Virus record (IMG/VR): IMGVR_UViG_3300045988_070690
Coordinates: 1 to 37,095 of that record
Strand: one strand, 5' to 3'
From: a virus
Length of the DNA stretch: 37,095 nt
The first letter of the stretch is position 1; every line of letters begins with the position of its first letter. Below are positions 4,295 through 27,657 of the stretch, one piece after another. The translations under genes and the position numbers were made by a program. Below the pieces are notes generated by a model. It worked only from the letters and a program-made list of their open reading frames with translations, was not told the origin of the DNA and did no database searches.

Positions 4295-4616
4295 TTTCGC
4301 CTCCTAGAATCTTTGCAACGCCGTCCTGCCAGTCTTCTGCGTGGTCTGCCTTGGCACGGTCAAACCACCGTGCTCCACGCAGCCCTTTAGAGCTTCCTTC
4401 GTAGTACTGTTTTTTGGCGTATGGAGTGTTCCACGTCACAGTGCCGCTGCCGATGTCGCTTGACATCTTGCCGCTTCTTTCCAGTGTACCAGTATCCAGC
4501 GGTACATATGGTGCACAAGTCCGTATCACTTCCTGATCCAGATACTTCTGTGCTTTTTCCAGGGCTTTTTCACTGCATTTTCCGGTATGTATCACCAGTT
4601 CGCCGTGTATCGTCAT
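4278..4616 (-). CDS. HK97 gp10-like head-tail joining protein
   Basis: 112 aa. LDQEVIRTCAPYVPLDTGTLERSG..TWNTPYAKKQYYEG matches the gp10-family pattern. Confidence 0.65.
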   Translation of the reverse strand: MTIHGELVIHTGKCSEKALEKAQKYLDQEVIRTCAPYVPLDTGTLERSGKMSSDIGSGTVTWNTPYAKKQYYEGSSKGLRGARWFDRAKADHAEDWQDGVAKILGGENDSNH

Positions 4617-4948
4617 ACCGCCGTCACCTCGATGTGCTGCACGTCCGCAGAGCCATACCGGTAATCCTCCACCGCCGTGATCGTTCTTCCGTCGCTTGGT
4701 GGCGTATCAGATTCACACCTTCCGCAAGCGATGATGTCAGCTTTCTGTGGCAGGTAGTCAGACAGCGATGACGCGGGGATACAGCACCAGATTTGGTCTT
4801 GCTGCTTCATAGACGTGCCAGTCTGCACCTGTGCCACGGTATCCTCCCAGTACACAGCTGGGATAAAGTGCGGCACATACGCCTCCATGCGGTTCTTGAC
4901 AGTCTTTTCATAGACTGTACAACCGACTTTATTGACAAACATAGTCAC
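4613..4948 (-). CDS. Head closure / head-tail adaptor protein
   Basis: 111-aa ORF in the connector block with a 4-nt overlap to each neighbour. Confidence 0.5.
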   Translation of the reverse strand: MTMFVNKVGCTVYEKTVKNRMEAYVPHFIPAVYWEDTVAQVQTGTSMKQQDQIWCCIPASSLSDYLPQKADIIACGRCESDTPPSDGRTITAVEDYRYGSADVQHIEVTAV

Positions 4949-5367
4949 ACCCCCCTGTACATCAGTCCTGTGCTGCCCAGATAGCGTATACAGATGCTCC
5001 GGAGATAGTCTTGCAAGCCGGAAGATGTGCCGTACAGCAAGCCTGAAATGGCCTGTGCAACTGTGGTATAGCTGACACTGTACTTACCGATTGTTTCGGA
5101 AGCTTTTCCGGATTTTCCGGAGCCGTTTGGTGTGCTGCTGCCGCCGTAGTCAGCATAGTCTGCCAACGCTTCGGCGATTGCACAGCAGCATTTTTTCACT
5201 TTTTCCGAAAACTCCTCCGGCACGCCACCAGAAAGGCGGTCAAACGTCACCATGTCCATGTACTCCGATGCACGCTCTGCATACATCAAAAACGTTTCTT
5301 CTTCTTTGATACGCTGCCCGCGGTAGGACTGCGTATAGTACGTGTGATCTGCATAAGGCATACTCAC
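4945..5367 (-). CDS. Head-tail connector (gp6-like) protein
   Basis: 140-aa ORF, the first gene after the capsid gene block. MSMPYADHTYYTQSYRGQRI.. is typical of DNA-packaging/connector proteins. Confidence 0.55.
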   Translation of the reverse strand: MSMPYADHTYYTQSYRGQRIKEEETFLMYAERASEYMDMVTFDRLSGGVPEEFSEKVKKCCCAIAEALADYADYGGSSTPNGSGKSGKASETIGKYSVSYTTVAQAISGLLYGTSSGLQDYLRSICIRYLGSTGLMYRGV

Positions 5368-5465
5368 TTCTCCTTTTTTGTCGCCGTGTCCTTTTCCTGC
5401 TTCGGTGCAGGCTTCTTTGCAGCTTTTTCAGGCTTTTCCGGAAACACCAAGCCTACTGTACGCAT
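5364..5465 (-). CDS. Small Lys-rich protein (33 aa), hypothetical
   Basis: ATG at 5465 follows a GGAGGTGA RBS. Sequence MRTVGLVFPEKPEKAAKKPAPKQEKDTATKKEK. It fills the gap after the capsid gene. Confidence 0.35.
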   Translation of the reverse strand: MRTVGLVFPEKPEKAAKKPAPKQEKDTATKKEK

Positions 5466-5481
5466 GCGGCTCACCTCCAGA

Positions 5482-6369
5482 TCAGGTCTTAGATACCGAT
5501 GCGTAGATGCCAAACTTCTTGTTGTCGTACACCTCTGTGATGCCGTAAGCACGGTAGAAGTACAGCCATGCATCAGAGTGCTGGTTCTGCTCCGGTGTGA
5601 TGACCTTGTTTACAGTGTGCTTGGTGAACTGGATCGGGGAATTTTTCTGCACGATCAGGAAGTTCAACTTCTTGCCTGCGGTTGCTGCCTTATATCCGCC
5701 GGCACTCTCATCAGCACCGGAAGAACCCGTCTTATCTACGCCGGAGAGCAGGTCAATGGCACTGTAAAAACGCGACTGCGGTACGCGGATTGTCTTCGCA
5801 AAGCCCGCCAGCATCGCCTTGGACTTGTAAGTGTCCAGTGCCTGAATCGCGTTGTACATAGTCGGTGTGATGTACAGCAGGCGGCTTTCCTGCGGCACCT
5901 CTGCCTCGTCCATAGCGATGTTTGCAGCGGTAATCGCAGCACAAACTGCCGCACCGTCTGCGAGATCTTCGCTCTTGTTGGTGCCAGCTGCCTTTGCATA
6001 TGCAGCAAAACGCCACGCGTCCATTTCCGGCACGACCTTGGTACGGATAAACTCAGAAGCAAGCTTTCCGAAGGACAGTGCTGCGGTTTCCTCGTTGTCC
6101 ATAGCGTCCACACTGAACCGTCTGCCGCGGTCGTAGTTAAACGTCTTTTCAACCCACTCCAGATCTACGTCACCGGACACGTAGCCGTCCTTGCGGCTGT
6201 AGTCCCCAAGACCGTCCATGCTCATCTTGGGGATCAAGATCGTCCGTGCATTGCTGCCCTGCCGTACAGTGCTGGAATCCGATTCCAGATCTGCTGTCAG
6301 TGTAGCACTCTTGTACACTTCGTCCAGCAGTTCGATATACTTTTTAATCAGTGTGAGATTGTTTGCCAT
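5482..6369 (-). CDS. Major capsid protein
   Basis: 295 aa. MANNLTLIKKYIELLDEVYKSATLTADLESD..IPKMSMDGLGDYSR resembles SPP1/A118-type major capsid proteins. It follows the scaffold gene. Confidence 0.85.
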   Translation of the reverse strand: MANNLTLIKKYIELLDEVYKSATLTADLESDSSTVRQGSNARTILIPKMSMDGLGDYSRKDGYVSGDVDLEWVEKTFNYDRGRRFSVDAMDNEETAALSFGKLASEFIRTKVVPEMDAWRFAAYAKAAGTNKSEDLADGAAVCAAITAANIAMDEAEVPQESRLLYITPTMYNAIQALDTYKSKAMLAGFAKTIRVPQSRFYSAIDLLSGVDKTGSSGADESAGGYKAATAGKKLNFLIVQKNSPIQFTKHTVNKVITPEQNQHSDAWLYFYRAYGITEVYDNKKFGIYASVSKT

Positions 6370-6384
6370 ATCTTATCTCCTTTC

Positions 6385-6909
6385 TCACTTCAAGCCCATG
6401 ACACGGCGGACCATTTCGTCCGTCACATCTTTGTTTGTGCTGCCGGTTGCGGAATCCACAAAAATCGGCGGCTTTTCATCTTCCGTTGAAAATGCGTCAG
6501 GGCAGCTTTTTTTCAGTGCCTTTACCACATCTTCACCACCAAGCAGTGTGTCACCGTCAAATTTCAGCTGTTTGCTTTCAATCTGACGCTTCAGATAGTC
6601 TGCATAGATCGGATTCTTGCAGCCCTGCTGTGCCACAAACTTGTCCAGTTTGGTGCTGTACTCCAGCTTCTGCATCTGATCTTGTGCAGCCTCATACTTC
6701 TTCTGCCAGTCGGCAGCAGACTGCTTGATGCCGTCGATGTCCATATCGGCATACGACTTGATTTTGTCGTTTGCATCGTTCAGCTGCCCCGTGACAGCGT
6801 CCAGCTTCGCCTGCAGAGCGTTGTAGTCCGCTTCGCTGTAGGTTTTTGCCTGAGGCTCCGGTGTCTGCTCCTGCTGCTGTTCCGGCTCGTTTTTGGTTTC
6901 GTCTTCCAT
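6385..6909 (-). CDS. Capsid scaffolding protein
   Basis: 174 aa with an acidic, Gln-rich N-terminus and coiled-coil character (EQQQEQTPEPQAKTYSEADYNALQAKLDAVTGQL). It lies directly upstream of the capsid gene. Confidence 0.8.
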   Translation of the reverse strand: MEDETKNEPEQQQEQTPEPQAKTYSEADYNALQAKLDAVTGQLNDANDKIKSYADMDIDGIKQSAADWQKKYEAAQDQMQKLEYSTKLDKFVAQQGCKNPIYADYLKRQIESKQLKFDGDTLLGGEDVVKALKKSCPDAFSTEDEKPPIFVDSATGSTNKDVTDEMVRRVMGLK

Positions 6910-6945
6910 GTTTTTTCATCCCTTTCTGAAAAATGATATAAAAAT

Positions 6946-6972
6946 AGCATCGGTTTCCCGATGCTTATTTTT
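6946..6972. terminator. Bidirectional rho-independent terminator inside the late operon
   Basis: Stem AGCATCGG (6946-6953) / CCGATGCT (6958-6965) with a 4-nt loop. T-runs follow it on both strands (TATTTTT on plus, ATTTTTAT on minus). Confidence 0.7.
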
Positions 6973-7055
6973 CGATATAGAAACGCCTACCCGCTGGCTT
7001 TCGTGTTTCTACCTTCCAGCCCTCCGCCGGTTTATGCCCGTGGTCGGGGCAGTGG

Positions 7056-7319
7056 TTACAGTTCGATGTTTTCGATTGCTGCACGTGCTTCCAGACTGGC
7101 GATATAATCAGCCATCGCTCTGATCTGGAAATTATAAATTCCTCTCGGACAGGTCGGCTGGAAGTTCAGTTTTCCTTCGTCCCATTTGTCCAGCATTGCT
7201 TTCAGCTTCTGGTACCGGACGCACACTTGCATATACTCCGCTTTGAATCGCTCTTTGTAATCGTCACTGCACATCAGTGATACTGTGTCTTTCAGCTCCG
7301 TTGCTCTGTATGTTCCCAT
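7056..7319 (-). CDS. Small phage protein (resembles the crAss001_48-related family), function unknown
   Basis: 87 aa. CSDDYKERFKAEYMQVCVRYQKLKAMLDKWDEGKLNFQPTCP..IRAMADYIASLEARA. Family recalled from memory only. Confidence 0.45.
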   Translation of the reverse strand: MGTYRATELKDTVSLMCSDDYKERFKAEYMQVCVRYQKLKAMLDKWDEGKLNFQPTCPRGIYNFQIRAMADYIASLEARAAIENIEL

Positions 7320-7339
7320 GTTATTTCTCCTTTCACATT

Positions 7340-7612
7340 CTATTCAACAATGCACCAATCTTCTGCCAGCATATCAGCCTGACTTGCAAGCCACCCCATT
7401 TGGACACCGCTTGTGCCAACAAATGCAAGTGCCTTGTTCCCGATAGCTTCATGTTCGCAGTTGATAATTTCACCGTTTGTGTTTTTGTAAGAGACATTTG
7501 TTGCAAGCTCGACGTACTGACTTTTGCCGTTCCAACCGGTTCTTGCAACTTTCTTTCCGGCTTTCATTGCTTCCAATGCTTCTCCAAATGTCACGCTTGT
7601 GTTTTCCAGCAT
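7340..7612 (-). CDS. DUF2829-family protein (Tad2-like candidate Thoeris anti-defence sponge)
   Basis: 90 aa. The N-terminus TFGEALEAMKAGKKVARTGWNGK and C-terminus GWLASQADMLAEDWCIVE are the hallmark ends of DUF2829. Confidence 0.75.
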   Translation of the reverse strand: MLENTSVTFGEALEAMKAGKKVARTGWNGKSQYVELATNVSYKNTNGEIINCEHEAIGNKALAFVGTSGVQMGWLASQADMLAEDWCIVE

Positions 7613-7615
7613 ACG

Positions 7616-8947
7616 CTACATCCTTTCATCTTTGTACAATTTTCCTTTTCCGCCGTTCGTTTTTGGCTCAGGCGGCGTGACTTCCACAGCATGCCCAGAC
7701 GTTCCGGCAGCCGCCGTGCTCGCTTGCTGTTTCTGCTGCTTCTGCCGTTTCGCCGCATGGACAGCTTTCTGCGATGCACTCCGTCCGAAGCCGTCCACTT
7801 GCTCCCGAAACGTATCCCGCCGCCGTCCGGTCTGATTACAAAACATTCTCAGCTGCTTTTCAGTTTCTTTCAGCTTTACCGCGTTTGCTTCGTAGTCTTC
7901 TTGCAACGCGGTTTTCATTTCTTCGTTCGGAGCATTTTCCACAGCAGTCTGTGCCGCCAGTGTACGCCGTTTCAACGCCCGCACATCACGTTCACCGGCA
8001 CGCTGCATTTGGCTTACCTCATACTCCGTGTATTTCTTGCCGTTGTACGGGACATTTCTTTCGTTCAGCTTTTCGATCTGCTCCTGCGTATAATTTGGTC
8101 TGGAAATGCCTTTATAGTACGCATGCCAGTCATGGCGGCAGTTCCAACCCTTGAATCCATCGCCAGAGCCGTAGCCGATTTCATGCAGCGTGTACACACG
8201 CAGCCCGTCTATGGTTTTTCCCGCGTCTTCGCCGGTCAGCGTGACAAGCTGCCCTTGCCACCTTGCATGCTCCGGTCTGGCACCGCTGTGTGCTGTCAGT
8301 TCCATAAGATGACAGCCCGATTCTTCTGCATACGTCTTAGATACTGCCACAGAAGTCTGCCCCACACCTGTCAGCGTACAGCGTCGCACTGCCACGTCTA
8401 TGCGGTCACGGTGGCCGGTGGGATAGGTCACATATACACCGGTGTCTGCAAGGCTGCGTACAGCCGTCCGTATCGCTTCTTGATAGCTGAACGCCCCAGA
8501 GGACACCTGCATATAAGACCTGTCACAAGCGTCGTAGAACGCCTGCTGTGTGGTGCTTGCCGTGGTACTCACGAGATTTCGCAGCGTTTTCTGCGTCTTG
8601 CGATAGCCTGCTTCCAGCACACGCCGCATAGGATTGCTCTGCCGGATATTGACCGGCGGCTGTTCTGCGGTTTCATGTATGTCACTTTCGATATTGACAG
8701 TTTCCACTCCCGCATCTTCAAAAAGAGCTTTCACGGCTGCGGAGCAGGCATCTGTCCTGATTGCGATGATCTGCACAATGTCTTCATAAAGCAAGCCAGC
8801 TTGCTGTAAAATTTCTGCTTGATACTTTGTCGTATCAGACACTTTTCCCATACGCATCATACGCCGTATCATAGCAGTGATGATGTCATCTTCCAGCATC
8901 TGATACAGTGCCACAACGCGATCTGCATTTGGCTCGTAGTTACGCAT
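7616..8947 (-). CDS. Minor head protein (SPP1 gp7 / Mu F-like head morphogenesis)
   Basis: 443 aa. HSGARPEHARWQGQ..GWNCRHDWHAYY is the Mu-F/gp7 core. It lies directly downstream of the portal gene. Confidence 0.8.
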   Translation of the reverse strand: MRNYEPNADRVVALYQMLEDDIITAMIRRMMRMGKVSDTTKYQAEILQQAGLLYEDIVQIIAIRTDACSAAVKALFEDAGVETVNIESDIHETAEQPPVNIRQSNPMRRVLEAGYRKTQKTLRNLVSTTASTTQQAFYDACDRSYMQVSSGAFSYQEAIRTAVRSLADTGVYVTYPTGHRDRIDVAVRRCTLTGVGQTSVAVSKTYAEESGCHLMELTAHSGARPEHARWQGQLVTLTGEDAGKTIDGLRVYTLHEIGYGSGDGFKGWNCRHDWHAYYKGISRPNYTQEQIEKLNERNVPYNGKKYTEYEVSQMQRAGERDVRALKRRTLAAQTAVENAPNEEMKTALQEDYEANAVKLKETEKQLRMFCNQTGRRRDTFREQVDGFGRSASQKAVHAAKRQKQQKQQASTAAAGTSGHAVEVTPPEPKTNGGKGKLYKDERM

Positions 8948-20648: not shown

Positions 20649-20877
20649 TCCGCTTCCTGTGCAGCTCACCAACCAAGGAATTTAACGCAATATCTGCAAT
20701 TTTGTGCATAATTGCGTCAATTTTTTCCGCGTCCTTTTCGCGGTCCAAGCAGTAGTTGTCTGCAATCGCAATTTTGGTGTTCCCCACCATGAATCGCTCC
20801 ACGATGTGCGGTGTTTCTTCCCTGCGGCTTTCTGCCATAATTTTCAGACCCTTTCTGCTAAACTCTGTACAAGTCAC
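20620..20877 (-). CDS. Hypothetical protein
   Basis: 85 aa. Either a GTGA overlap with the antirepressor stop, or an alternative ATG at 20838. Confidence 0.45.
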   Translation of the reverse strand: MTCTEFSRKGLKIMAESRREETPHIVERFMVGNTKIAIADNYCLDREKDAEKIDAIMHKIADIALNSLVGELHRKRNEGNERDHM

Positions 20878-21641
20878 CGTGCGTTCATGAACTTGTTGAT
20901 AAAGTAAACTTGTCCCTTGCCCGTCACCTTCGGCGTTTTGTTGGTGGTGATATGCCCGTCAGAGTGCGTGATGATAGTCTGCTTCACTTCAAACAGCCCC
21001 ATTTCCGCAGATTTCTGCGTCGGCATGTTGTAGTCGCTGCCCTCTCGCTTTATCAGGTATCCGTTTTCACGGAGCCAAGCAAAAAGTCTGAACTGCCCTG
21101 TGTCCACGCCGTTCTGCTTCAGAATCTTTGCAAGTTCACCCACCAAGATGCTGGATTTCGACGCGGAAACGCTGTCTGCGAACAGTACTTTCGGCTTGTC
21201 CTGCTCCACTTTGGCTTCAAGCTGCTTTCGCTGCTCTTTTTCTTCTTTCAGCTGCGTCGCAAGCTGGATCAGAAAATCCGGTGAAGTCAAAGCCTGCTCC
21301 AGCGTCTGATCTGTCATGTACGCACCGTGCTTGCGTATAGACGGCAGGACCACGCTGGTAACCCACCGCTTGAACTTCTTCGCGTTCGGCAGTTTGCTGG
21401 AAAGAACAAGACTGTAGAGACCGGATTCGTTTAAAATTGTCAAATCCTGTGCGCCACCAAGGGTGTAACATTTCGTTACCCCCTTATCCTCAGCGTCAAC
21501 ATGGTCTGCTATCGCTTTGCTTGCGTTTGCATATCCCAGAACCTTTGCTACATCCTTTGCAACGAACCACGGCTCGCTGTCTTTCTCAACGGTGCGGATT
21601 TCGTGATACTCATAGTTCCAGACTAGTAAATTATTGTTCAT
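20874..21641 (-). CDS. Antirepressor (Bro-N domain plus KilAC/ANT C-terminal domain)
   Basis: 255 aa. Bro-N region (IRTVEKDSEPWFVAKDVAKVLGY..AIADHVDAEDKG) and C-terminal region (LVGELAKILKQNGVDTGQFRLFAWLRENGYLIKR). Confidence 0.8.
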   Translation of the reverse strand: MNNNLLVWNYEYHEIRTVEKDSEPWFVAKDVAKVLGYANASKAIADHVDAEDKGVTKCYTLGGAQDLTILNESGLYSLVLSSKLPNAKKFKRWVTSVVLPSIRKHGAYMTDQTLEQALTSPDFLIQLATQLKEEKEQRKQLEAKVEQDKPKVLFADSVSASKSSILVGELAKILKQNGVDTGQFRLFAWLRENGYLIKREGSDYNMPTQKSAEMGLFEVKQTIITHSDGHITTNKTPKVTGKGQVYFINKFMNAR

Positions 21642-21657
21642 GTTTCATCTTCCTTTC

Positions 21658-21858
21658 TTACGCCGGCATAAGCGGCAGAACTTTTTCGGCAGCTGCGGCG
21701 ATAGACGCTTGATAGAGCACGTGTCGTGCTTTTTCCTCACTTAGTCCGCCGATCAACTCGAAAAGTGTGACGACCTGCCCGATGTCAGCGTTGTACTTAC
21801 GACACGCTTCCATAAGTGTCATCGTGTCATCAAAAGTGGTTTTTACAGGCTCTCCCAT
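21658..21858 (-). CDS. Hypothetical protein; first conventional early gene after the non-coding block
   Basis: ATG at 21858 follows a GAGGTGA RBS. The track uses GTG at 21867. Confidence 0.45.
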   Translation of the reverse strand: MGEPVKTTFDDTMTLMEACRKYNADIGQVVTLFELIGGLSEEKARHVLYQASIAAAAEKVLPLMPA

Positions 21859-21867
21859 AGCTTTCAC

Positions 21868-22417
21868 CTCGCTTTCTTTTTAGATTTGTGGTAGGCACTG
21901 ATCTGCTCAATGCCCAGAAGCACCGGCACACGCATATCTCATGCGGGACGGTATGCACTGTGTGCTTTTACAGGCTTTCAGCCGCCTGTGGTCGCTGCTG
22001 TACTAGGTCTGCGTAACGTTATCACAGCCTTGCCCACAGCTGGGCTGGTGGAGCGTTCGGGGGTTGCACCTAAAGCTGTGGATTGTCAGCCCACAGCATG
22101 ACTGCATCGCTCCCCTTGCGGCGGCATCGTACTAGCCGCCGCGTGGAGAAAAATAAAAATGGAGGTATTACGCCATCATGGCGTTTTGAAGATGTTGGTG
22201 CGGCGTGCCGGAGTTGCACCGGAGCCGGTGGAAAGGTTGACCGGCTATCTGTTCGCCACATCTGACCGCGGTGTTGGCAGCACCACGGTCAGTTGCAATT
22301 GAAAGGAGTACACCGAGCAGTTTAACGTCTTACTCTGGACGGCTTTTTTGTTGTCCGCCAGTCGCGGACGTGTGGAAGCGGTCAGTTTAGAGCCGTACCG
22401 CCGGACGGCTTGAAAAA
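21868..22417 (-). ncRNA. Candidate structured non-coding RNA, distal block (about 550 nt)
   Basis: No RBS-led ORF. GC-rich with many perfect stems (22118-22125/22135-22142; 22262-22292; 22391-22410). One G.U pair forms only in the minus-strand sense. Confidence 0.4.
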
Positions 22418-22418
22418 T
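22372..22418. repeat. 47-bp direct repeat, left copy (44/47 identical to 23325-23371), containing hairpin AGCCGT-N8-ACGGCT
   Basis: Aligned by eye: GTGGAAGCGGTCAGTTTAGAGCCGTACCGCCGGACGGCTTGAAAAAT versus GTGGAAACGGTCAGTTTAGAGCCGTACCGCCGGACGGCTGGAAAAGT. Confidence 0.9.
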
Positions 22419-22894
22419 CAATACACCATTCCATTTTCGCGAATATGCATAAAGCCGCGAATTAGCCATGTCGGAACTTGTGAGTATCCAACGAAACCGC
22501 TTTTTTCATTGTAAACCGCTTGCTGTATATCATATGCTACACACCTACCAGCCCTATTCTCAATCAAAATATAGCATTTTTCGCCATTTTCCGGTTTCGT
22601 TTTATCGGTGTAGTTACCATGCCACTTTCTGAGATCCATAATATTTTTCTCATAATAGGCTCTAATTGATTTGTTAAAAAGAACTTCATATGCTGTAACG
22701 ATTTCCCCGCTGTTGCGTTTATCCTGTCCAATCGGATATGCAACCATAACAACATTTTCGCCGTTCTTATCACATTCATATAACACATTACATACTTCAC
22801 AACTGCCATTATTAAATTTGCACAATACTGGCGGATAATGCAAGGCAACTTTCATAATATCGTCAATGCTCATGCCATTTGTTTTTTTTAACAT
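22418..22894 (-). CDS. Orphan protein (158 aa) of the AT-rich cassette
   Basis: ATG follows a GGAGGAAAAAAGAA RBS. Sequence starts MLKKTNGMSIDDIMKVALHYPPVLCKFNNGSCEVCNVLYECDK... No family recognised. Confidence 0.6.
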   Translation of the reverse strand: MLKKTNGMSIDDIMKVALHYPPVLCKFNNGSCEVCNVLYECDKNGENVVMVAYPIGQDKRNSGEIVTAYEVLFNKSIRAYYEKNIMDLRKWHGNYTDKTKPENGEKCYILIENRAGRCVAYDIQQAVYNEKSGFVGYSQVPTWLIRGFMHIRENGMVY

Positions 22895-23035
22895 TTCTTT
22901 TTTCCTCCAAAAAAAATAAGATTTTTTCGCCTTGTGGTGTGGTGTATTATACTTGCCACTTTGTGCAGTTATGGAATACTACTTTTTTTCGTGAAGTAGT
23001 TCAGAAACACGTCTTTTCTTTTAGCCTTTTAGCTT

Positions 23036-23275
23036 CTACTTTTTTACATAGTCCTTAAAATGCTTCATAGGCTTATCGACTTCATAACCCCAGCGTTTTA
23101 TAATATTTTCGTTGCCTTCCTCCATAAAAACATTGACTTCAAAAAAGATTGTTTCTGTGTTTTCTGGAAGTGTTTCTCTAATTTCCTTGCACTTTTGCAA
23201 AGAAGCAGAGATGAACAAAACCGTCTCACGTAATACGTTTTTTGAAATATCGATTGCAGAAACAGAATACAGCAT
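23036..23275 (-). CDS. Orphan protein (79 aa) of the AT-rich cassette
   Basis: ATG follows a GGAGGTATAAAGTC RBS. Sequence starts MLYSVSAIDISKNVLRETVLFISASLQKCKEIRETL... No family recognised. Confidence 0.55.
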   Translation of the reverse strand: MLYSVSAIDISKNVLRETVLFISASLQKCKEIRETLPENTETIFFEVNVFMEEGNENIIKRWGYEVDKPMKHFKDYVKK

Positions 23276-23637
23276 GACTTTATACCTCCATGAATTTATT
23301 TTTTACGTGTTTTCGCCTGTCGGCGTGGAAACGGTCAGTTTAGAGCCGTACCGCCGGACGGCTGGAAAAGTAGCATTTACTCTCCCGACGGGTGTTGGTG
23401 GATGCTGCGGAATTGCACCGCACAGCAAGACAGAGGAAACGAAATAGACAATGCTCCCTGTTGGAGACAGCTGCCACGGAGTTGCACCGTGCATTGCCCA
23501 GAGGCTTCATATCTCTCAGCTGGACAACTAAGACGCACCCCCAATTATGCGGTGATACGCCACCACCTTATGCTTATTCGCTTTCCCTATAGGCGGGAAA
23601 CAAAATTTTCAGTCGTTCGCGTTTTGCCCTTGACTGT
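23276..23637 (-). ncRNA. Candidate structured non-coding RNA / long leader, promoter-proximal block (about 360 nt)
   Basis: It starts just downstream of the leftward consensus promoter. No credible ORF. Contains two T-arm-like hairpins (23475-23491, 23406-23422). Confidence 0.4.
23325..23371. repeat. 47-bp direct repeat, right copy
   Basis: See 22372-22418. The copies start 953 bp apart. Confidence 0.9.
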
Positions 23638-23643
23638 AATTAA

Positions 23644-23672
23644 ATTATAGCACATAACGCCAACATTGTCAA
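23644..23672 (-). promoter_or_regulatory. Early leftward promoter, perfect TTGACA-17-TATAAT
   Basis: Minus strand: -35 at 23667-23672, -10 at 23644-23649, 17-nt spacer. Confidence 0.8.
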
Positions 23673-23680
23673 CTGGAATA

Positions 23681-23727
23681 TTACACAAATCGCATACGAT
23701 ATTTTTGTGCAGTTTGCGTAATGTGAA
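23681..23727. promoter_or_regulatory. Imperfect inverted repeat between the divergent promoters (candidate repressor operator)
   Basis: TTACACAAATCGCA (23681-23694) versus the reverse complement of TGCGTAATGTGAA (23715-23727). The core CACAwwwCGCA is shared. Confidence 0.35.
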
Positions 23728-23746
23728 AATTAAAGCAAAAATTCAC

Positions 23747-23775
23747 TTGACAGCGTTCACGTTTTGTAGTATAAT
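23747..23775 (+). promoter_or_regulatory. Rightward repressor promoter, perfect TTGACA-17-TATAAT
   Basis: -35 at 23747-23752, -10 at 23770-23775. A GGAGG RBS follows, then ATG at 23800. Confidence 0.8.
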
Positions 23776-23799
23776 AGAATATAGAAAGGAGGTGATAGC

Positions 23800-24306
23800 A
23801 TGTGCTGGTATGAAATCTTGAAAACACTACGCGAAAAATCTGGGGAATCCATGTCGAAAACAGCAGAATTTCTTGGAATCCCAAAAGGTACGTATGCAAG
23901 CTATGAGTACGGGAAGCGAGAGCCTAACATAGAAATGATTTTGAAAATTTCAGATCATTTCGGCGTAGCAATTGACTATCTACTAGGTGGGAAATCCGCG
24001 GAAACGCCAGAAGACACCATAAAAAGGCTTGCAAAGCAGTACAAGATGACAGATGCACAGAGGGGTATTGCAGCCGCATACTTTTATATGGACAAAGAAA
24101 ACCGAGAAAAGCTTCTGGAGATCGTCAGGACGTTTGCAGACAGTGCAGATGCCGCGGAATCCAAAGAATCCCGCGAAAAATTCGAAAAAGTCAAGGTTGC
24201 AGCTTACCAAAATCCCGCCGGAAGTATCCCACGTGAAGCAGAGTATCCGCAGGAGCTGCTTGACGATATGGACAAAAACGCCCCTCTGACAGACCCAGAT
24301 ATGTGA
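23800..24306 (+). CDS. XRE-family repressor (ImmR-like)
   Basis: 168 aa. HTH LREKSGESMSKTAEFLGIPKGTYASYEYGKREPNIEMILKISDHFGVAIDYLLG. No S24 peptidase domain. Followed by the ImmA-like gene. Confidence 0.85.
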   Translation: MCWYEILKTLREKSGESMSKTAEFLGIPKGTYASYEYGKREPNIEMILKISDHFGVAIDYLLGGKSAETPEDTIKRLAKQYKMTDAQRGIAAAYFYMDKENREKLLEIVRTFADSADAAESKESREKFEKVKVAAYQNPAGSIPREAEYPQELLDDMDKNAPLTDPDM

Positions 24307-24362
24307 TACAGCATCATAAAAAGTCACCTTAGTGGTATACTACCATGCAGAGAGGTGACTGT

Positions 24363-24890
24363 ATGAAGCGTATCTATCAGACCGCCGCAGAAGCAAGCTT
24401 ATGCTGCTTGCTGTCCTGCGGCGTTTCTGCACTACCGGTAAAGCCAGTGCGTATCGTGATGCACTACGATGTGCCGTGCTTTGACTGTGCACACCCGCTT
24501 CTGGAAGGGGAGATAGGGCGTATCATCAAGCGGGCGGACGGCAGAGTGCAGATCGTGCTGGACCCGTCGAAGCCGATACCGCAAAAGCGTTTTGCAGTGG
24601 CTCACGAGCTGGGGCACTATCTTCTGGGGCATCTGGACAGACCACCGGAGCCAGAGGACGAGTGTGACGCAGACCGCTTCGCAGACGGCGTTCTGATGCC
24701 GCTGTGTGTGCTCTACGGCGTTCAAGCGTTCGATACGTCAACTATATCGCGTGTCTGTAAAGTCCCTCACGCAGCCGCACAACGCCGTTCTGACGGGTTT
24801 AAAGCTTTTCACAAAAAAAGAAAGCCGGAAAGTGTGTTGGAACGGCAGGTGTACGAGCAGTTCCGGCAGTTTATCGACAGCAGCAGATAA
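24363..24890 (+). CDS. ImmA/IrrE-family zinc metallopeptidase (anti-repressor protease)
   Basis: HELGHYLLGH (HExxH motif). ATG at 24363 follows an AGAGGTGA RBS. Classic immR-immA gene order. Confidence 0.8.
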   Translation: MKRIYQTAAEASLCCLLSCGVSALPVKPVRIVMHYDVPCFDCAHPLLEGEIGRIIKRADGRVQIVLDPSKPIPQKRFAVAHELGHYLLGHLDRPPEPEDECDADRFADGVLMPLCVLYGVQAFDTSTISRVCKVPHAAAQRRSDGFKAFHKKRKPESVLERQVYEQFRQFIDSSR

Positions 24891-25052: not shown

Positions 25053-26012
25053 ATGAAAAAGAAGTTTATATCCATTTTGCTGGCTGGTGCTATCGCTGCA
25101 TCGCTATCTGCATGCGGAACGGAGCAAGAAAAGCCAGAAAGCAGCAAGCAAACAGAAACTGCCACTAGCACGACACTTGCAACGACTGGGACAAAATCGA
25201 CATATAAAATTGTAAAAAGCACGACCGCAGCAGTAGCGACGCAACCTGCAGAGCCGGACAAAATAGATACTCTGGCGACCGTGGGAGATGCAACATTTTC
25301 TGTTTCGTCAAATTGGACAAAAACGGAAGATAAAAACACTGTGTATTGGGCGAAAACAAGTTACAGTTGCTTTTTTGTGTATAAGTCTGAGGTTCAATAC
25401 AACGATTCAAAATCGTGTATGCGGCAAATTTATGACGAATTCACAAAAAGTGACAATATCGACGGATACAGCATGACAGAAGACACGACGATAGGCGGCG
25501 TAGAGGGCATCAGGTTTGACGCTGTCACAGTGCCAGACGAAGATGATTTCAGCCGGAAAGCCGTGTACTATGTCACTGTGTATAACGGGAACGCATACTG
25601 TTTCGCGTTCGTTGATCGCTGTGTCAGTGATGCGGAAATTTTCGGGTTTGAAGATGAGATAGTAAGCTCCATTTCGTTTTCCGGAGCAGCTGCAGAAACC
25701 CAGACAGCGGCAGAGAGCAGCGTCACAATCGGAATGGCAAATGCTGTCGAAACCGCAAAGAATTACCTTAAATTTACATCTTTTTCGTATCAAGGACTTG
25801 TCGATCAGTTGCTGTATGAAAAGTACACGCAAGAGGAAGCAGTATATGGTGCAGACAACTGCGGAGCAGACTGGAATGAACAGGCAGCAAAATGTGCAGA
25901 AAGTTATATGGAATACTCATCATTTTCAAGACAAGATTTGTACGATCAGTTAATATATGAAAAATTTACAGATGAACAGGCTGAATACGGCGTTCAGTCT
26001 GTCGGATATTAA
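25053..26012 (+). CDS. Ltp-like surface lipoprotein (candidate superinfection exclusion)
   Basis: 319 aa. Signal peptide with lipobox LSAC. Two C-terminal Ltp-type repeats (AVETAKNYLKFTSFSYQGLVDQLLYEKYTQEEAVYGADN / AAKCAESYMEYSSFSRQDLYDQLIYEKFTDEQAEYGVQS). Confidence 0.8.
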   Translation: MKKKFISILLAGAIAASLSACGTEQEKPESSKQTETATSTTLATTGTKSTYKIVKSTTAAVATQPAEPDKIDTLATVGDATFSVSSNWTKTEDKNTVYWAKTSYSCFFVYKSEVQYNDSKSCMRQIYDEFTKSDNIDGYSMTEDTTIGGVEGIRFDAVTVPDEDDFSRKAVYYVTVYNGNAYCFAFVDRCVSDAEIFGFEDEIVSSISFSGAAAETQTAAESSVTIGMANAVETAKNYLKFTSFSYQGLVDQLLYEKYTQEEAVYGADNCGADWNEQAAKCAESYMEYSSFSRQDLYDQLIYEKFTDEQAEYGVQSVGY

Positions 26013-26067: not shown

Positions 26068-27657
26068 TTGGACACATACTGTATATATCTACGAAAATCG
26101 CGTGCGGACGCAGAAGCTGAAGCACGCGGAGAGGGCGAAACCCTGGCACGGCACGAGCACACACTGTGCGACTTAGCCAAGCGGCAGAAGCTCCACATAT
26201 CTAAGATATACCGCGAGATCGTATCCGGCGAAACGATCGCAGCAAGACCGCAGATGCAGCAGCTTCTGCAAGACGTGGAAAGCGGCATATACGCTGGTGT
26301 GCTGGTCATGGAGGTAGAGCGACTTGCCCGCGGTGACACCATAGATCAAGGCATCGTGGCACAAGCTTTTAAGTACTCTGGCACAAAGATCGTCACACCT
26401 ACTAAGACGTATGACCCAGACAATGAGTTTGACGAGGAATACTTCGAATTTTCACTTTTTATGTCACGGAGAGAGTACAAGACGATCAAGCGGCGTATGC
26501 AGGCAGGGCGTGCAGCAGCGGCGAAAGAGGGAAAATTTGTCGGAAATATCCCGCCTTACGGATACGACCGGAAAAAGCTTGACCATGACAGTGGCTTTAT
26601 GCTGGTACCAAACGAAAAGGCAAAAATTGTAAAAATGATATTTGAGTGGTACACTGTGGGTGTCGTCATGCCAGACGGAACGCGGCAGCGAATCGGCACG
26701 ACACACATCGCAAACCGACTGCATCAAATGGGCATAAAAACGCCACGGGGCGGGCGTTGGAACAACTACTCTGTCCGCAGTATACTGCTTAACCCCGTGT
26801 ACTGCGGTGTTATCCGGTGGGGATACCGCAGGGGTAAAAGCAAGCTGCAAAACGGCGTCATCACTAAAACGCGACCGACAGCCGAAGATGGATATATAGA
26901 AGCAAAAGGCTTGCACGATCCTCTCATATCGCAAGAGACCTATGACACCGCACAGGAACTTGCACACGCCGCTGCAAAGATACCCAAGGTTAAGCTGGGC
27001 GGGGCTCTCAAAAATCCGTTAGCGGGGATTGTGGTGTGCCGTAAATGCGGGAAAAGCATGGGGCGGCAGCCATACACAAGTGAAAGGTACAGCGGCGAAA
27101 TGCTGATCTGCAAAACCCCCGACTGCCGGTGCGTTTCATCTGATATACACATAGTGGAGCAACGGCTGCTTGATAGCCTTGCAGAGTGGCTGCATCAGTA
27201 TGAGGTACAGTGGCAGGAGCACACGATGCAAGCCACAGCCGCCGAACCGAAGGACGATCAGACCGCCGTCTTAGAAGATCTTCGGAAAGAGCAAGCAAAG
27301 GCAAAAGCACAGCTTGCAAAAGCTTACGATCTGCTAGAGCAAGAGATATACGACACCAACACCTTTGTGGAGCGTTCCAGCATCTTAAAAGCAAAAATCT
27401 CCGATTTGCAGGACAGTATAGACCATATAGAGAAAAGCGTGCGGGAGATGTCATCGCGTGACGATGACATGCAAAAGATCATACCAAAGGTAAAGCATAT
27501 CTTAGAGGTATACAGCACGCTTCCAGATGCGTCAGCGAAAAACCAGCTGCTTAAAGAAGTACTTGAAAAAGCAGAGTACAGCAAAGACCACAGCACCCGC
27601 TGGCACGGAAATCCCGACGATTTTGACCTTGTGATTTTCCCGAAACTTCCAAGGTGA
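26068..27657 (+). CDS. int: Large serine recombinase (integrase)
   Basis: 529 aa with a TTG start. Catalytic N-terminus CIYLRKSRAD..ETLARHE, recombinase domain, zinc-ribbon (CRKCGKSM..CKTPDC) and C-terminal coiled coil. Confidence 0.9.
   Translation: MDTYCIYLRKSRADAEAEARGEGETLARHEHTLCDLAKRQKLHISKIYREIVSGETIAARPQMQQLLQDVESGIYAGVLVMEVERLARGDTIDQGIVAQAFKYSGTKIVTPTKTYDPDNEFDEEYFEFSLFMSRREYKTIKRRMQAGRAAAAKEGKFVGNIPPYGYDRKKLDHDSGFMLVPNEKAKIVKMIFEWYTVGVVMPDGTRQRIGTTHIANRLHQMGIKTPRGGRWNNYSVRSILLNPVYCGVIRWGYRRGKSKLQNGVITKTRPTAEDGYIEAKGLHDPLISQETYDTAQELAHAAAKIPKVKLGGALKNPLAGIVVCRKCGKSMGRQPYTSERYSGEMLICKTPDCRCVSSDIHIVEQRLLDSLAEWLHQYEVQWQEHTMQATAAEPKDDQTAVLEDLRKEQAKAKAQLAKAYDLLEQEIYDTNTFVERSSILKAKISDLQDSIDHIEKSVREMSSRDDDMQKIIPKVKHILEVYSTLPDASAKNQLLKEVLEKAEYSKDHSTRWHGNPDDFDLVIFPKLPR

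Follow-up and report, generated by a model that had tools for sequence, protein, structure and literature searches.

Probable recombinational shuffling of promoterless orphan genes at a conserved junction element in the early leader of a temperate gut phage

The early leader and its repeat-bounded cassette

The DNA analyzed here is a viral stretch of 37,095 nucleotides (IMG/VR virus record IMGVR_UViG_3300045988_070690, positions 1 to 37,095; hereafter, the window), in which two small orphan genes, encoding proteins of 79 and 158 amino acids (aa), lie between two direct repeats close behind an early promoter. The repeat is designated R, its right and left copies R1 and R2, respectively, and the non-coding modules on either side A and B. 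R recurs behind many unrelated small genes in related phages, and it is probably a junction, conserved at the RNA level, at which homologous recombination shuffles promoterless orphan genes. Along early transcription, i.e., on the minus strand of the window, the order is the early promoter (P), module A, R1, a small hairpin (HP2′), the 79-aa gene, a spacer, the 158-aa gene, R2, another small hairpin (HP2), module B, a 69-aa open reading frame (ORF) and the antirepressor gene (Ant).

R1 (23325..23371) and R2 (22372..22418, downstream of the 158-aa gene) are identical at 44 of 47 positions, and their starts are 953 bp apart. The longest exact run common to both is 32 nt, compared to a maximum of 15 nt in 200 dinucleotide shuffles of positions 21500-24000, and the 26-nt core of R occurs exactly twice in the 37-kb window, with no occurrence expected by chance. 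Both copies carry an identical hairpin on the minus strand (AGCCGT-CCGGCGGT-ACGGCT, designated HP1), which has an 8-nt loop and is followed in R1 by CUAAACUG and ACCGUUUCCAC. R2 overlaps the stop codon of the 158-aa ORF by 1 nt, with 7 nt from the UGA to the start of the element. The cassette between the repeats (22419-23324, 906 bp) has a guanine-plus-cytosine (GC) content of 35.8%, as opposed to 55.4% (21870-22371) and 52.8% (23372-23600) in its flanks. It contains the 79-aa gene (23275..23036; 34% GC) and the 158-aa gene (22894..22418; 37% GC), both on the minus strand and each with a GGAGG ribosome-binding site (RBS) located 8-9 nt before the ATG. These traits, namely the two ORFs with their RBSs, the AT-rich segment between GC-rich flanks, the 47-bp direct repeats that bound it, the common hairpin and the position of the left repeat at the stop codon, had been noted in a first reading of the sequence (the original prediction), and all were reproduced.

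Each copy of R is accompanied by one of the small hairpins. HP2′ (23314..23325, minus strand; CGCC-GACA-GGCG) has a GNRA tetraloop and is followed by an A-rich run and the RBS of the 79-aa gene. HP2 (22353..22369, minus strand; GUCCGC-GACUG-GCGGAC), defined from the sequence and from a minimum free energy (MFE) fold, is followed by an A-run and is kept beside R in many loci with variants of its loop. R1 with its downstream hairpin is 92-93% identical to R elements of contigs L003, L005 and L166, and R2 with HP2 is 96-100% identical to elements in L001, L002, L004, L203, L208 and L210.

The only strong minus-strand promoter near the cassette that emerged from the promoter scan is the early promoter (23644..23672, read 23672-23644), a sigma-70 type with a 12/12 match (TTGACA, a 17-nt spacer and an extended -10, TG-TATAAT). 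Promoter and terminator scans showed neither a minus-strand promoter (at least 10/12) nor an intrinsic terminator within 22372-23371, and no minus-strand promoter in or beside R1, R2, HP2 or HP2′. A repeat search gave no terminal inverted repeats at the cassette ends, and a protein family scan no transposase domain among the window genes. Lacking a promoter, a terminator or terminal inverted repeats of its own, the block must therefore be read from the early promoter via a non-coding leader of about 270 nt. Judging from its sequence and position, the early promoter drives the leader, the cassette and the early genes. The cassette was rightly described as the first coding unit after this promoter, because only a conserved non-coding module stands between the promoter and the 79-aa gene.

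Alleles of the locus in related phages

All of the related contigs (denoted by L numbers) originate from gut metagenomes; a blastn search of INPHARED with positions 21600-23800 as the query gave no match. The window arrangement (A, R, HP2′, the 79-aa and 158-aa genes, R, HP2, B) is carried by L229-L234, and this recurrence in at least six independent assemblies argues that it is not an assembly artefact. Repeats of this kind can mislead short-read assemblers, and a metagenome assembly chimera at the 47-bp repeat might thus be suspected. Such an origin is scarcely conceivable here, since the same arrangement with identical proteins appears in at least six contigs from different samples and assemblers, and since alternative alleles are likewise represented by several contigs each (L108 and L172; L003, L005, L177 and L202). 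In L232, an extra gene and an R of type 2 (defined below) lie upstream of module A.

The alternative alleles differ by what is placed between the modules. L208 comprises A, one complete R, HP2 and B; its flanks are 94-96% identical to the window, and its two alignments with the window overlap by exactly one R. In L170, the order is A, R (type 2), a 58-aa Cys-rich gene, R, HP2 and B, i.e., a different cargo between two copies. In L108 and L172 (88-95% identical), A is joined to ACCGTTTCCAC-HP2-B and the R hairpin is missing. In these two contigs, the junction falls on TAAA(C)TG, a microhomology that the end of A shares with the middle of R, consistent with a deletion at that sequence. Other contigs are devoid of module A. 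L203 shows the order P, 111-aa gene, R, HP2 and B, and over 22131-22410 its identity with the window is complete (100%); in L210 and L134 a 48-aa gene occupies the directly upstream position, and L134 continues from P and this gene with R (type 2), a 150-aa homologue of the 158-aa protein, R, HP2 and B. L003 and L005 contain P, the 111-aa gene, R, HP2′, an opposite-strand lipoprotein moron, 65-aa and 88-aa genes, and B. This opposite-strand lipoprotein gene (3030-3665 in L005; also in L003, L177 and L202) has its own promoter-like sequence and a canonical terminator, and represents a classical moron that adjoins an R element in the same hot-spot.

The proposal that the segment is an exchangeable cassette in a structured non-coding leader is borne out by these cassette-less, alternative-cargo and deletion alleles. 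Two comparisons that had been suggested, i.e., for a relative with one element and no cassette and for a relative with different cargo between two copies, gave L208 and L170, respectively, and the relatives do not uniformly carry both genes without flanking repeats.

The same alleles bear on the possibility that an element like a transposon, or like a miniature inverted-repeat transposable element, inserted in the leader, the repeats being either its ends or a target-site duplication. Relative to L208, the window does display direct repeats around an insertion of foreign base composition. On the other hand, 47 bp is far above known target-site duplication lengths, neither a transposase nor terminal inverted repeats are present, and R is single at the empty site and also stands behind many unrelated genes. 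Moreover, the conserved hairpin that follows is not the same for the two copies (HP2′ and HP2), and both hairpins have separate homologues at other loci. We regard a transposon-like origin as very improbable, and it is effectively refuted by L208.

A family of junction elements

R elements were collected by a degenerate pattern scan of IMG/VR and of JGI/ENA metagenomes, followed by a looser regular expression. Among the 51 matches, 46 are located in phage early regions and five are spacers of clustered regularly interspaced short palindromic repeats (CRISPR). The 200 nt on either side of R were clustered into flank classes, from which the CRISPR class was removed. The 46 phage elements combine 16 upstream with 13 downstream classes in 25 combinations. 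Of the upstream classes, seven each occur with two or three different downstream classes; the reverse is also true, and downstream class 0 (HP2-B) has five upstream partners. R begins mostly 6-7 nt (range 6-19) past the stop codon of a small gene, and the genes that precede it represent at least ten unrelated protein families, ranging from 43 to 158 aa. Nine other R-adjacent proteins, compared with PHROGs and Pfam, gave no PHROG match and one sub-threshold Pfam match (TusA). The orphan nature of the R-linked cargo has a parallel in the ORFan-rich hyperplastic regions of T4-type phages (PMC2839356). A scan of GTDB genomes with the degenerate R pattern produced chance matches only, in unrelated phyla. 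The repeat is not tied to this cassette alone, a correction to the original prediction; on the comparisons made here, R is a member of a family of intercistronic elements and not a target-site duplication.

The breakpoints between R and its variable neighbors occur at several positions, namely at the 5′ foot or edge of HP1, after CTAAAC, after CTAAACTG (in L108) and after TTCCAC. In hybrids L179 and L182, which break after CTAAAC, a type-1 hairpin is combined with a type-2 tail; after TTCCAC, the sequence runs on either as HP2 (GTCCGC-GACTG-GCGGAC) or as HP2′ (CGCC-GNRA-GGCG). R itself is 92-100% identical between loci whose neighboring sequences are saturated at synonymous sites (the 158-aa gene versus L134) or 76% identical (module B versus L005). 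Near-identical copies of R behind unrelated genes would allow homologous recombination to swap whatever lies between them. The scattered breakpoints, the free reassortment of flanks and the conserved core together argue for homologous, occasionally microhomology-mediated recombination, rather than for transposition or exchange at a single site. At about position 547 of L174, R follows a truncated Bro-N (antirepressor N-terminal) frame, and this is consistent with recombination at R having cut the gene.

The layout of the locus also recalls that of an integron, with a common promoter, promoterless ORFs and a hairpin element 3′ of each ORF, and R could accordingly be a site-specific recombination site (integron-attC-like or res/att-like) served by a dedicated recombinase, e.g., the large serine recombinase of the phage or a host enzyme. 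At every locus, R has a sharp 5′ boundary, there is an imperfect palindrome within R, and the serine recombinase gene (26068-27657) is only some 2.7 kb away. Breakpoints at no fewer than four positions in and after R nevertheless speak against a single crossover site, and the near-identity of the R copies (92-100%) contrasts with the diversity of attC sites. No tyrosine integrase lies beside the array, the neighbors being the XRE, ImmA, Ltp and serine recombinase genes, and the last of these is an ordinary prophage integrase in the standard position of its module. The 6-bp arms of R are, in addition, far shorter than the att half-sites of serine integrases. A site-specific role of R is therefore considered improbable.

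One group of matches, the L167 group, had the appearance of an odd R variant with flanking repeats; it was rejected as such, the matches being CRISPR spacers, and was removed from the set of phage elements. The gut-metagenome contigs concerned (L167, L176, L183, L195 and L197) bear CRISPR arrays with the 28-nt repeat CTTTTCCCCGCATAGGCGGGGGTGATCC and a period of 61. In L176, the contig examined in detail, the array (4577-8880) lies beside a type I-E Cas1e gene and a Cas2e-DnaQ exonuclease fusion. One spacer, TATATAGCCGTCCGGCGGTACGGCTCTAAACTG, matches the R core, such that the bacteria bearing these arrays carry a spacer that matches a junction element common to many related phages.

R as a putative RNA element

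On the strand of the early transcript, R is 45-47 nt long and consists of HP1 (a 6-bp AGCCGY/RCGGCU stem with an 8-nt loop), CUAAAC(UG or AAUA) and either ACCGY (type 1) or ACCAG (type 2). In most cases another small hairpin, whose loop is of the GNRA or UNCG type, comes next, and behind it lie an A-run and the RBS of the following gene. HP1 is fully paired in 23 distinct elements, and its closing pair is U-A, U-G or C-G. The stems of HP2 are wholly different yet complementary (GUCCGC/GCGGAC, CGCC/GGCG, CGCU/AGCG, CCC/GGG and GACC/GGUC), and variants of HP2′ in other loci (CGCC-GUAA-GGCG and CGCU-GUAA-AGCG) differ by a compensatory stem change. The loops are of the GNRA (GUAA, GACA) or UNCG type (UACG) only when read on the minus strand; a pentaloop also occurs. 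The covariation in HP1, the paired but different HP2 stems and the restriction of GNRA and UNCG loops to the minus strand mark this strand as the putative functional one. The strand bias of the tetraloops and the covariation of the stems provide the best evidence that R may be selected as RNA, on the minus strand of the window.

A candidate H-type pseudoknot would pair the HP1 loop (GCGGU; CUGGU in type 2) with the downstream ACCGC (ACCAG); 96.8% of cells are paired, a level reached by none of 500 shuffles, and for the helix between loop and tail the figure is 93%, with a score that likewise no shuffle attained. Two functions of R were considered and rejected. An intrinsic terminator on either strand was dismissed for want of a consistent U-tract (none follows HP1 or HP2, and the terminator scan was negative). 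A stimulator of stop-codon read-through or frameshifting, as the position of HP1, mostly 6-7 nt after the stop codon, might suggest, was dismissed in view of the variable frame relative to the upstream ORF and of the extension, which would be a short non-conserved peptide. A search of the whole window against Rfam at the gathering threshold gave no match; at E ≤ 10, positions 21600-23900 gave only the sub-threshold M23 (E = 0.28) and Tymo_tRNA-like (E = 0.71), and no family for R, A or B.

If R acts at the RNA level, it might do only that. According to such an explanation, R is no more than a cis-acting RNA signal (a nut-like boxA/boxB or a ribonuclease (RNase) processing site), and its duplication is the by-product of one block transfer, with no recurrent mobilization. 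R indeed lies downstream of the early promoter, where nut sites are found, and its RNA strand can be assigned from the tetraloops and covariation. Its GGCUCUAAAC resembles the boxA of E. coli and lambda (CGCUCUUUAACAA), and the GNRA-type loop of HP2′ is like that of boxB. The 25 flank combinations and the hybrid R elements are, however, signs of repeated exchange rather than of one event, and the variable HP2 loops (GNRA, UNCG, pentaloop) are unlike the single target of an RNA-binding antiterminator. A non-exhaustive search found no N-like or Q-like gene. An explanation by RNA signalling overlaps with recombinational shuffling at R, which also assumes an RNA function; taken by itself, it is conceivable, but we think it rather unlikely.

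Composite origin of the cassette

The two genes of the cassette have different histories. Positions 22945-23316 of the window are 81.6% identical to L126-L133; they span the 79-aa gene with the 41 nt that precede it and, on its other side, two-thirds of the spacer. The L126-L133 contigs represent phages rich in AT, which have an HTH_26 repressor and a series of small early genes; the 158-aa gene is absent from them. The intergenic spacer (22895..23035, minus strand) reflects this history: its 5′ two-thirds correspond to the L126-type repeated intergenic element, with the hairpin ACUACUU/AAGUAGU, and its 3′ part contains a degenerate CCAC..GGCGAAAA remnant and the RBS of the 158-aa gene. In L126 (4885-8576) and in L127-L133, the small early genes are separated by a repeated intergenic element (GTTTCTGAACCGTTTCCAG...) present in five copies, some 60-77 nt in length, which has the decamer ACCGTTTCCA in common with the tail of R. 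The architecture of a repeat between ORFans thus recurs in the AT-rich L126 lineage with a different repeat.

On either side of the L126-derived block there is a 19-nt imperfect direct repeat, designated D6 (22924-22942 and 23310-23328; 15/19 identical). Its left copy (CCAC..GGCGAAAA, just before the RBS of the 158-aa gene) looks like a decayed R tail plus HP2′, a resemblance that could be due to chance. With the same reservation, D6 suggests that the 79-aa block is a nested insertion upstream of a pre-existing 158-aa-R-HP2-B unit, such as that of L134. Members of the 158-aa family occur with other partners or alone in L134, L118 and L235; in L118 the member is fused directly to a B-like module without R, and in L235 it lies in an unrelated context, also without R. 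The genes had been put forward as a candidate effector pair, and this part of the original prediction was not sustained: since the 79-aa block belongs to an AT-rich lineage without the 158-aa gene, and the 158-aa family is partnered otherwise or stands alone, the two genes appear from these comparisons to be neighbors by recombination history, of separate origins, and not an obligate or demonstrated functional pair.

The two orphan proteins

The ratio of nonsynonymous to synonymous substitution rates (dN/dS) is 0.27 for the 79-aa gene versus L126 and 0.14 for the 158-aa gene versus L134; in the latter comparison, dS exceeds 2 and the synonymous sites are saturated. These ratios identify both ORFs as real genes, evidently under purifying selection. 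Relatives are few. Among 5.8 billion clusters, the 79-aa protein has only one identical cluster and one relative at 75%. Four relatives of the 158-aa protein were found by a k-mer/HMMER search, and four true relatives by an exhaustive phmmer search of 1.84 billion representatives; two further phmmer matches proved to be spurious, being due to Cys-rich repeats (ShK domain, listerin). Overall, the 158-aa protein has 4-6 relatives among 1.84-5.8 billion proteins.

No family was recognized for either protein when the sequence was first read, and database searches led to the same result: comparison with Pfam, PHROGs, PADLOC and NCBIfam gave nothing significant, and a profile search of PDB sequences gave only E > 0.8. 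Neither protein matches a housekeeping phage family. The AlphaFold model of the 158-aa protein predicts an all-beta fold when based on an eight-sequence alignment, with a predicted local distance difference test (pLDDT) score of 75.9 and a predicted template modelling (TM) score (pTM) of 0.69; the model from a five-sequence alignment (pLDDT 48) was not usable. A Foldseek search with the former, as had been proposed, produced no significant match in the PDB (best E = 0.24) or BFVD (best E = 0.044), with TM ≤ 0.33. Weak hints of a tandem Tudor or chromo-barrel and of DUF551-like small barrels were all at E ≥ 0.04. No similarity to a known anti-CRISPR (Acr) or anti-defence protein was detected among the cargo, nor an aca-type regulator beside it. 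The first-transcribed position, the orphan status and the rapid turnover would fit the profile of anti-defence or host-takeover genes; a counter-defence role is, however, a guess from position.

Leader modules A and B

Module A (23372..23572, minus strand) is conserved, non-coding and probably a structured RNA. It forms a discrete element of about 190 nt, approximately 91% identical in 24 IMG/VR contigs with unrelated flanks. Its RNAalifold consensus comprises 46 pairs, eight of them with compensatory change, in a long stem capped by a multi-way junction, and two hairpins carry a 7-nt loop, UGCAAYU, which resembles the T-loop of tRNA. Module A is, on comparative grounds, a candidate new phage leader RNA. 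At its 5′ end (23534-23551, minus strand) there is a terminator-like hairpin, CGCAU-AAUUGGGG-GUGCG, followed by UCUUAGUUGU, and this hairpin is kept in L160 by compensatory change. In other phages, an upstream hairpin (GCGGUGA-GCGAA-UCACCGC) overlaps it. The overlapping structures hint at an attenuator or switch in the early leader.

Module B (21868..22345, minus strand) is a conserved GC-rich non-coding region, which contains two further T-loop-like hairpins and one tRNA-like unit and ends at the RBS of the 69-aa ORF. It aligns with L003 and L005 at 76% identity and with L108 and L208 at 91-96%, and no ORF is conserved. The motif GGTGCAAYYCC occurs four times in the window, always in this region and on the minus strand, whereas 0.08 occurrences are expected. 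The tRNA-like unit (about 22046-22113) is reminiscent of a cloverleaf in degenerate form, in which CU-GAC-AA resembles an anticodon loop and ACCA stands at the 3′ end, and is the source of the weak Tymo_tRNA-like match (E = 0.71); L118 contains two tandem copies of it. ARAGORN, at default and relaxed thresholds, called no credible tRNA or transfer-messenger RNA in the leader, and the T-arm-like hairpins are therefore termed only "T-loop-like". As far as sequence and folding can tell, the two flanking modules look like new RNAs with T-loop-like hairpins.

Genomic context

The early promoter diverges from the promoter of the repressor gene (23747-23775, plus strand; sigma-70, 12/12). On the plus strand, the lysogeny switch genes encode an XRE repressor (23800-24306) and an ImmA/M78 protease (24345-24890). 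They are followed by an Ltp-type surface lipoprotein gene (25053-26012; PF07553, E = 4e-29, two repeats), located between the ImmA protease and the integrase and likely to be a superinfection-exclusion gene of the prophage, and by the large serine recombinase, i.e., the prophage integrase (26068-27657). On the minus strand, module B is followed by the 69-aa ORF (21867..21658) and the Bro-N/KilAC antirepressor gene (Ant, 21641..20874), after which further early genes are found. The terminase and integrase of the window share no more than 55% identity with their counterparts in uncultured phages from human faeces and in Clostridium and Dorea phages. The window carries the lysogeny switch of a temperate phage, a siphovirus of the type that infects Clostridia in the human gut.

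Proposed recombination at R

The explanation that we favor, with some confidence though well short of certainty, is that promoterless orphan genes are shuffled by homologous recombination at R, a conserved junction element that acts at the RNA level. According to this proposal, the first 1.8 kb or so of the early transcript would be a patchwork of the non-coding modules A and B and of small promoterless orphan genes, each gene unit ending in an intercistronic R. General homologous recombination between copies of R would insert, delete or replace the intervening DNA, and the partners in the exchange could belong to a single genome, to co-infecting relatives or to resident prophages, or the exchange could pass through an excised circle. 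It would presumably be mediated by RecA or by a phage recombinase, and would not be site-specific. The block with the 79-aa and 158-aa genes would then be one composite cargo, expressed by read-through from the early promoter. The selected role of R itself may be at the RNA level, in insulating or processing the polycistronic early mRNA: the upstream cistron would be shielded at its 3′ end by one hairpin, and the downstream cistron at its 5′ end by the other, with an A-rich single strand between the two hairpins. The cargo proteins, in turn, may act early, e.g., in host takeover or counter-defence.

Several observations weigh against this proposal. As regards the RNA, the covariation of the putative pseudoknot stems from two haplotypes only, and is broken in hybrids L179 and L182 and in variant L134b; the MFE z-scores of R are modest (-2.2 to -2.6); and R is neither a canonical terminator, nor a promoter, nor a duplex of the size cut by RNase III, its RNA role being proposed from position and architecture. 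Moreover, R is not obligatory for the 158-aa family, since it is missing in L118 and L235. As regards the exchange, recombination at R is deduced from the comparison of alleles, from which the direction, gain or loss, is not inferable. The single R of L208 carries the R2-type base at both polymorphic sites, so that this allele is not literally the product of a crossover between R1 and R2 of the present genome. Finally, RecA-type recombination would hardly be efficient over as little as 45 nt, although this length suffices for the single-strand-annealing recombinases of phages.

Comparison with known systems

The promoter-early stem-loops (PeSLs) of T4-type phages have been described as "mobile regulatory cassettes" of hyperplastic regions (PMC2839356; PMC4122927). 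They flank ORFans; recombination between them accounts for the indels and replacements by which close relatives differ, and gives rise to mini-circles (PMC2839356). Like them, R is a short conserved stem-loop repeat that flanks ORFans in a hypervariable early region, and relatives differ by repeat-bounded indels or replacements (L208, L170, L108, L203, L134). Unlike the PeSLs, R has neither a sigma-70 promoter nor a terminator U-tract, such that all of the cargo relies on one upstream promoter. It is located at the 3′ end of each ORF, shares no sequence similarity with PeSLs, and belongs to a temperate siphovirus of gut Firmicutes rather than to lytic T4-like myoviruses. With no promoter of its own and no terminator signature, R is, by analogy, closest to the PeSLs but an analogue of them rather than a member.

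Other systems share part of the architecture. Morons were reportedly described in lambdoid and HK97-like phages by Juhala and colleagues and by Hendrix and colleagues in 2000; in the classical case, a moron is transcribed autonomously, from a promoter of its own to its own terminator. The present block resembles a moron in being placed between elements that are adjacent in L208 (A-R-HP2-B), in its base composition (35.8% GC versus 53-55% in the flanks) and in its accessory or unknown function. It differs in having neither promoter nor terminator of its own, and in being read from the lytic early promoter, not in the lysogen. Integron cassettes are likewise promoterless ORFs after a common promoter, in which a hairpin element behind each ORF marks the joint of exchange. 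In the case of R, there is no IntI and no attC architecture, R is nearly invariant between cassettes, and its scattered breakpoints point to homologous or illegitimate recombination.

Structured elements that are repeated in an early transcript and placed between cistrons are also familiar from the nut sites of lambda and P22, the RNase III sites of T7 and the repetitive extragenic palindromic (REP) elements. R carries the boxA-like GCUCUAAAC and a hairpin with a GNRA-type loop; this is resemblance only, and the position fits processing or stabilization. In contrast to nut sites, no N-like protein emerged from the non-exhaustive search and there is no terminator to override; the variable loop type of HP2 is an argument against a specific boxB, and as a substrate of RNase III, HP1 is too short. 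The cargo, for its part, resembles the anti-CRISPR and other anti-defence loci at the start of early operons, which are also small, fast-evolving, first-transcribed orphans with a quick turnover between relatives; in the present case, the type I-E arrays in gut contigs contain an R-matching spacer.

A broader proposal would unite these features. The early leader could be a plug-and-play platform, in which R serves both as a portable RNA module that insulates cistrons and as the recombination joint for a shared pool of ORFans, and in which the cargo provides immediate-early counter-defence, for instance versus the type I-E CRISPR-Cas system with the R-matching spacer. We offer this extension as speculation, and would not expect it to hold in full.

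Implications for temperate gut phages

If shuffling at R is correct, the repeat-mediated exchange of ORFans, which has so far been documented for lytic T4-type phages, would also operate in temperate phages of the human gut, and would do so through a new promoterless, RNA-like junction element that differs from the PeSL type. The leader would contribute a compact candidate RNA motif, R, together with two larger leader RNAs bearing T-loop-like hairpins, none of which are represented in Rfam. CRISPR arrays in gut metagenomes, moreover, carry a spacer that matches this conserved junction of many related phages. For the retrieval of immediate-early accessory genes from gut viromes, the R core (AGCCGTCCGGCGGTACGGCTCTAAAC) and the type-2 variant of it may serve as a concrete sequence handle; anti-defence and host-takeover proteins are usually encoded by genes of this class.

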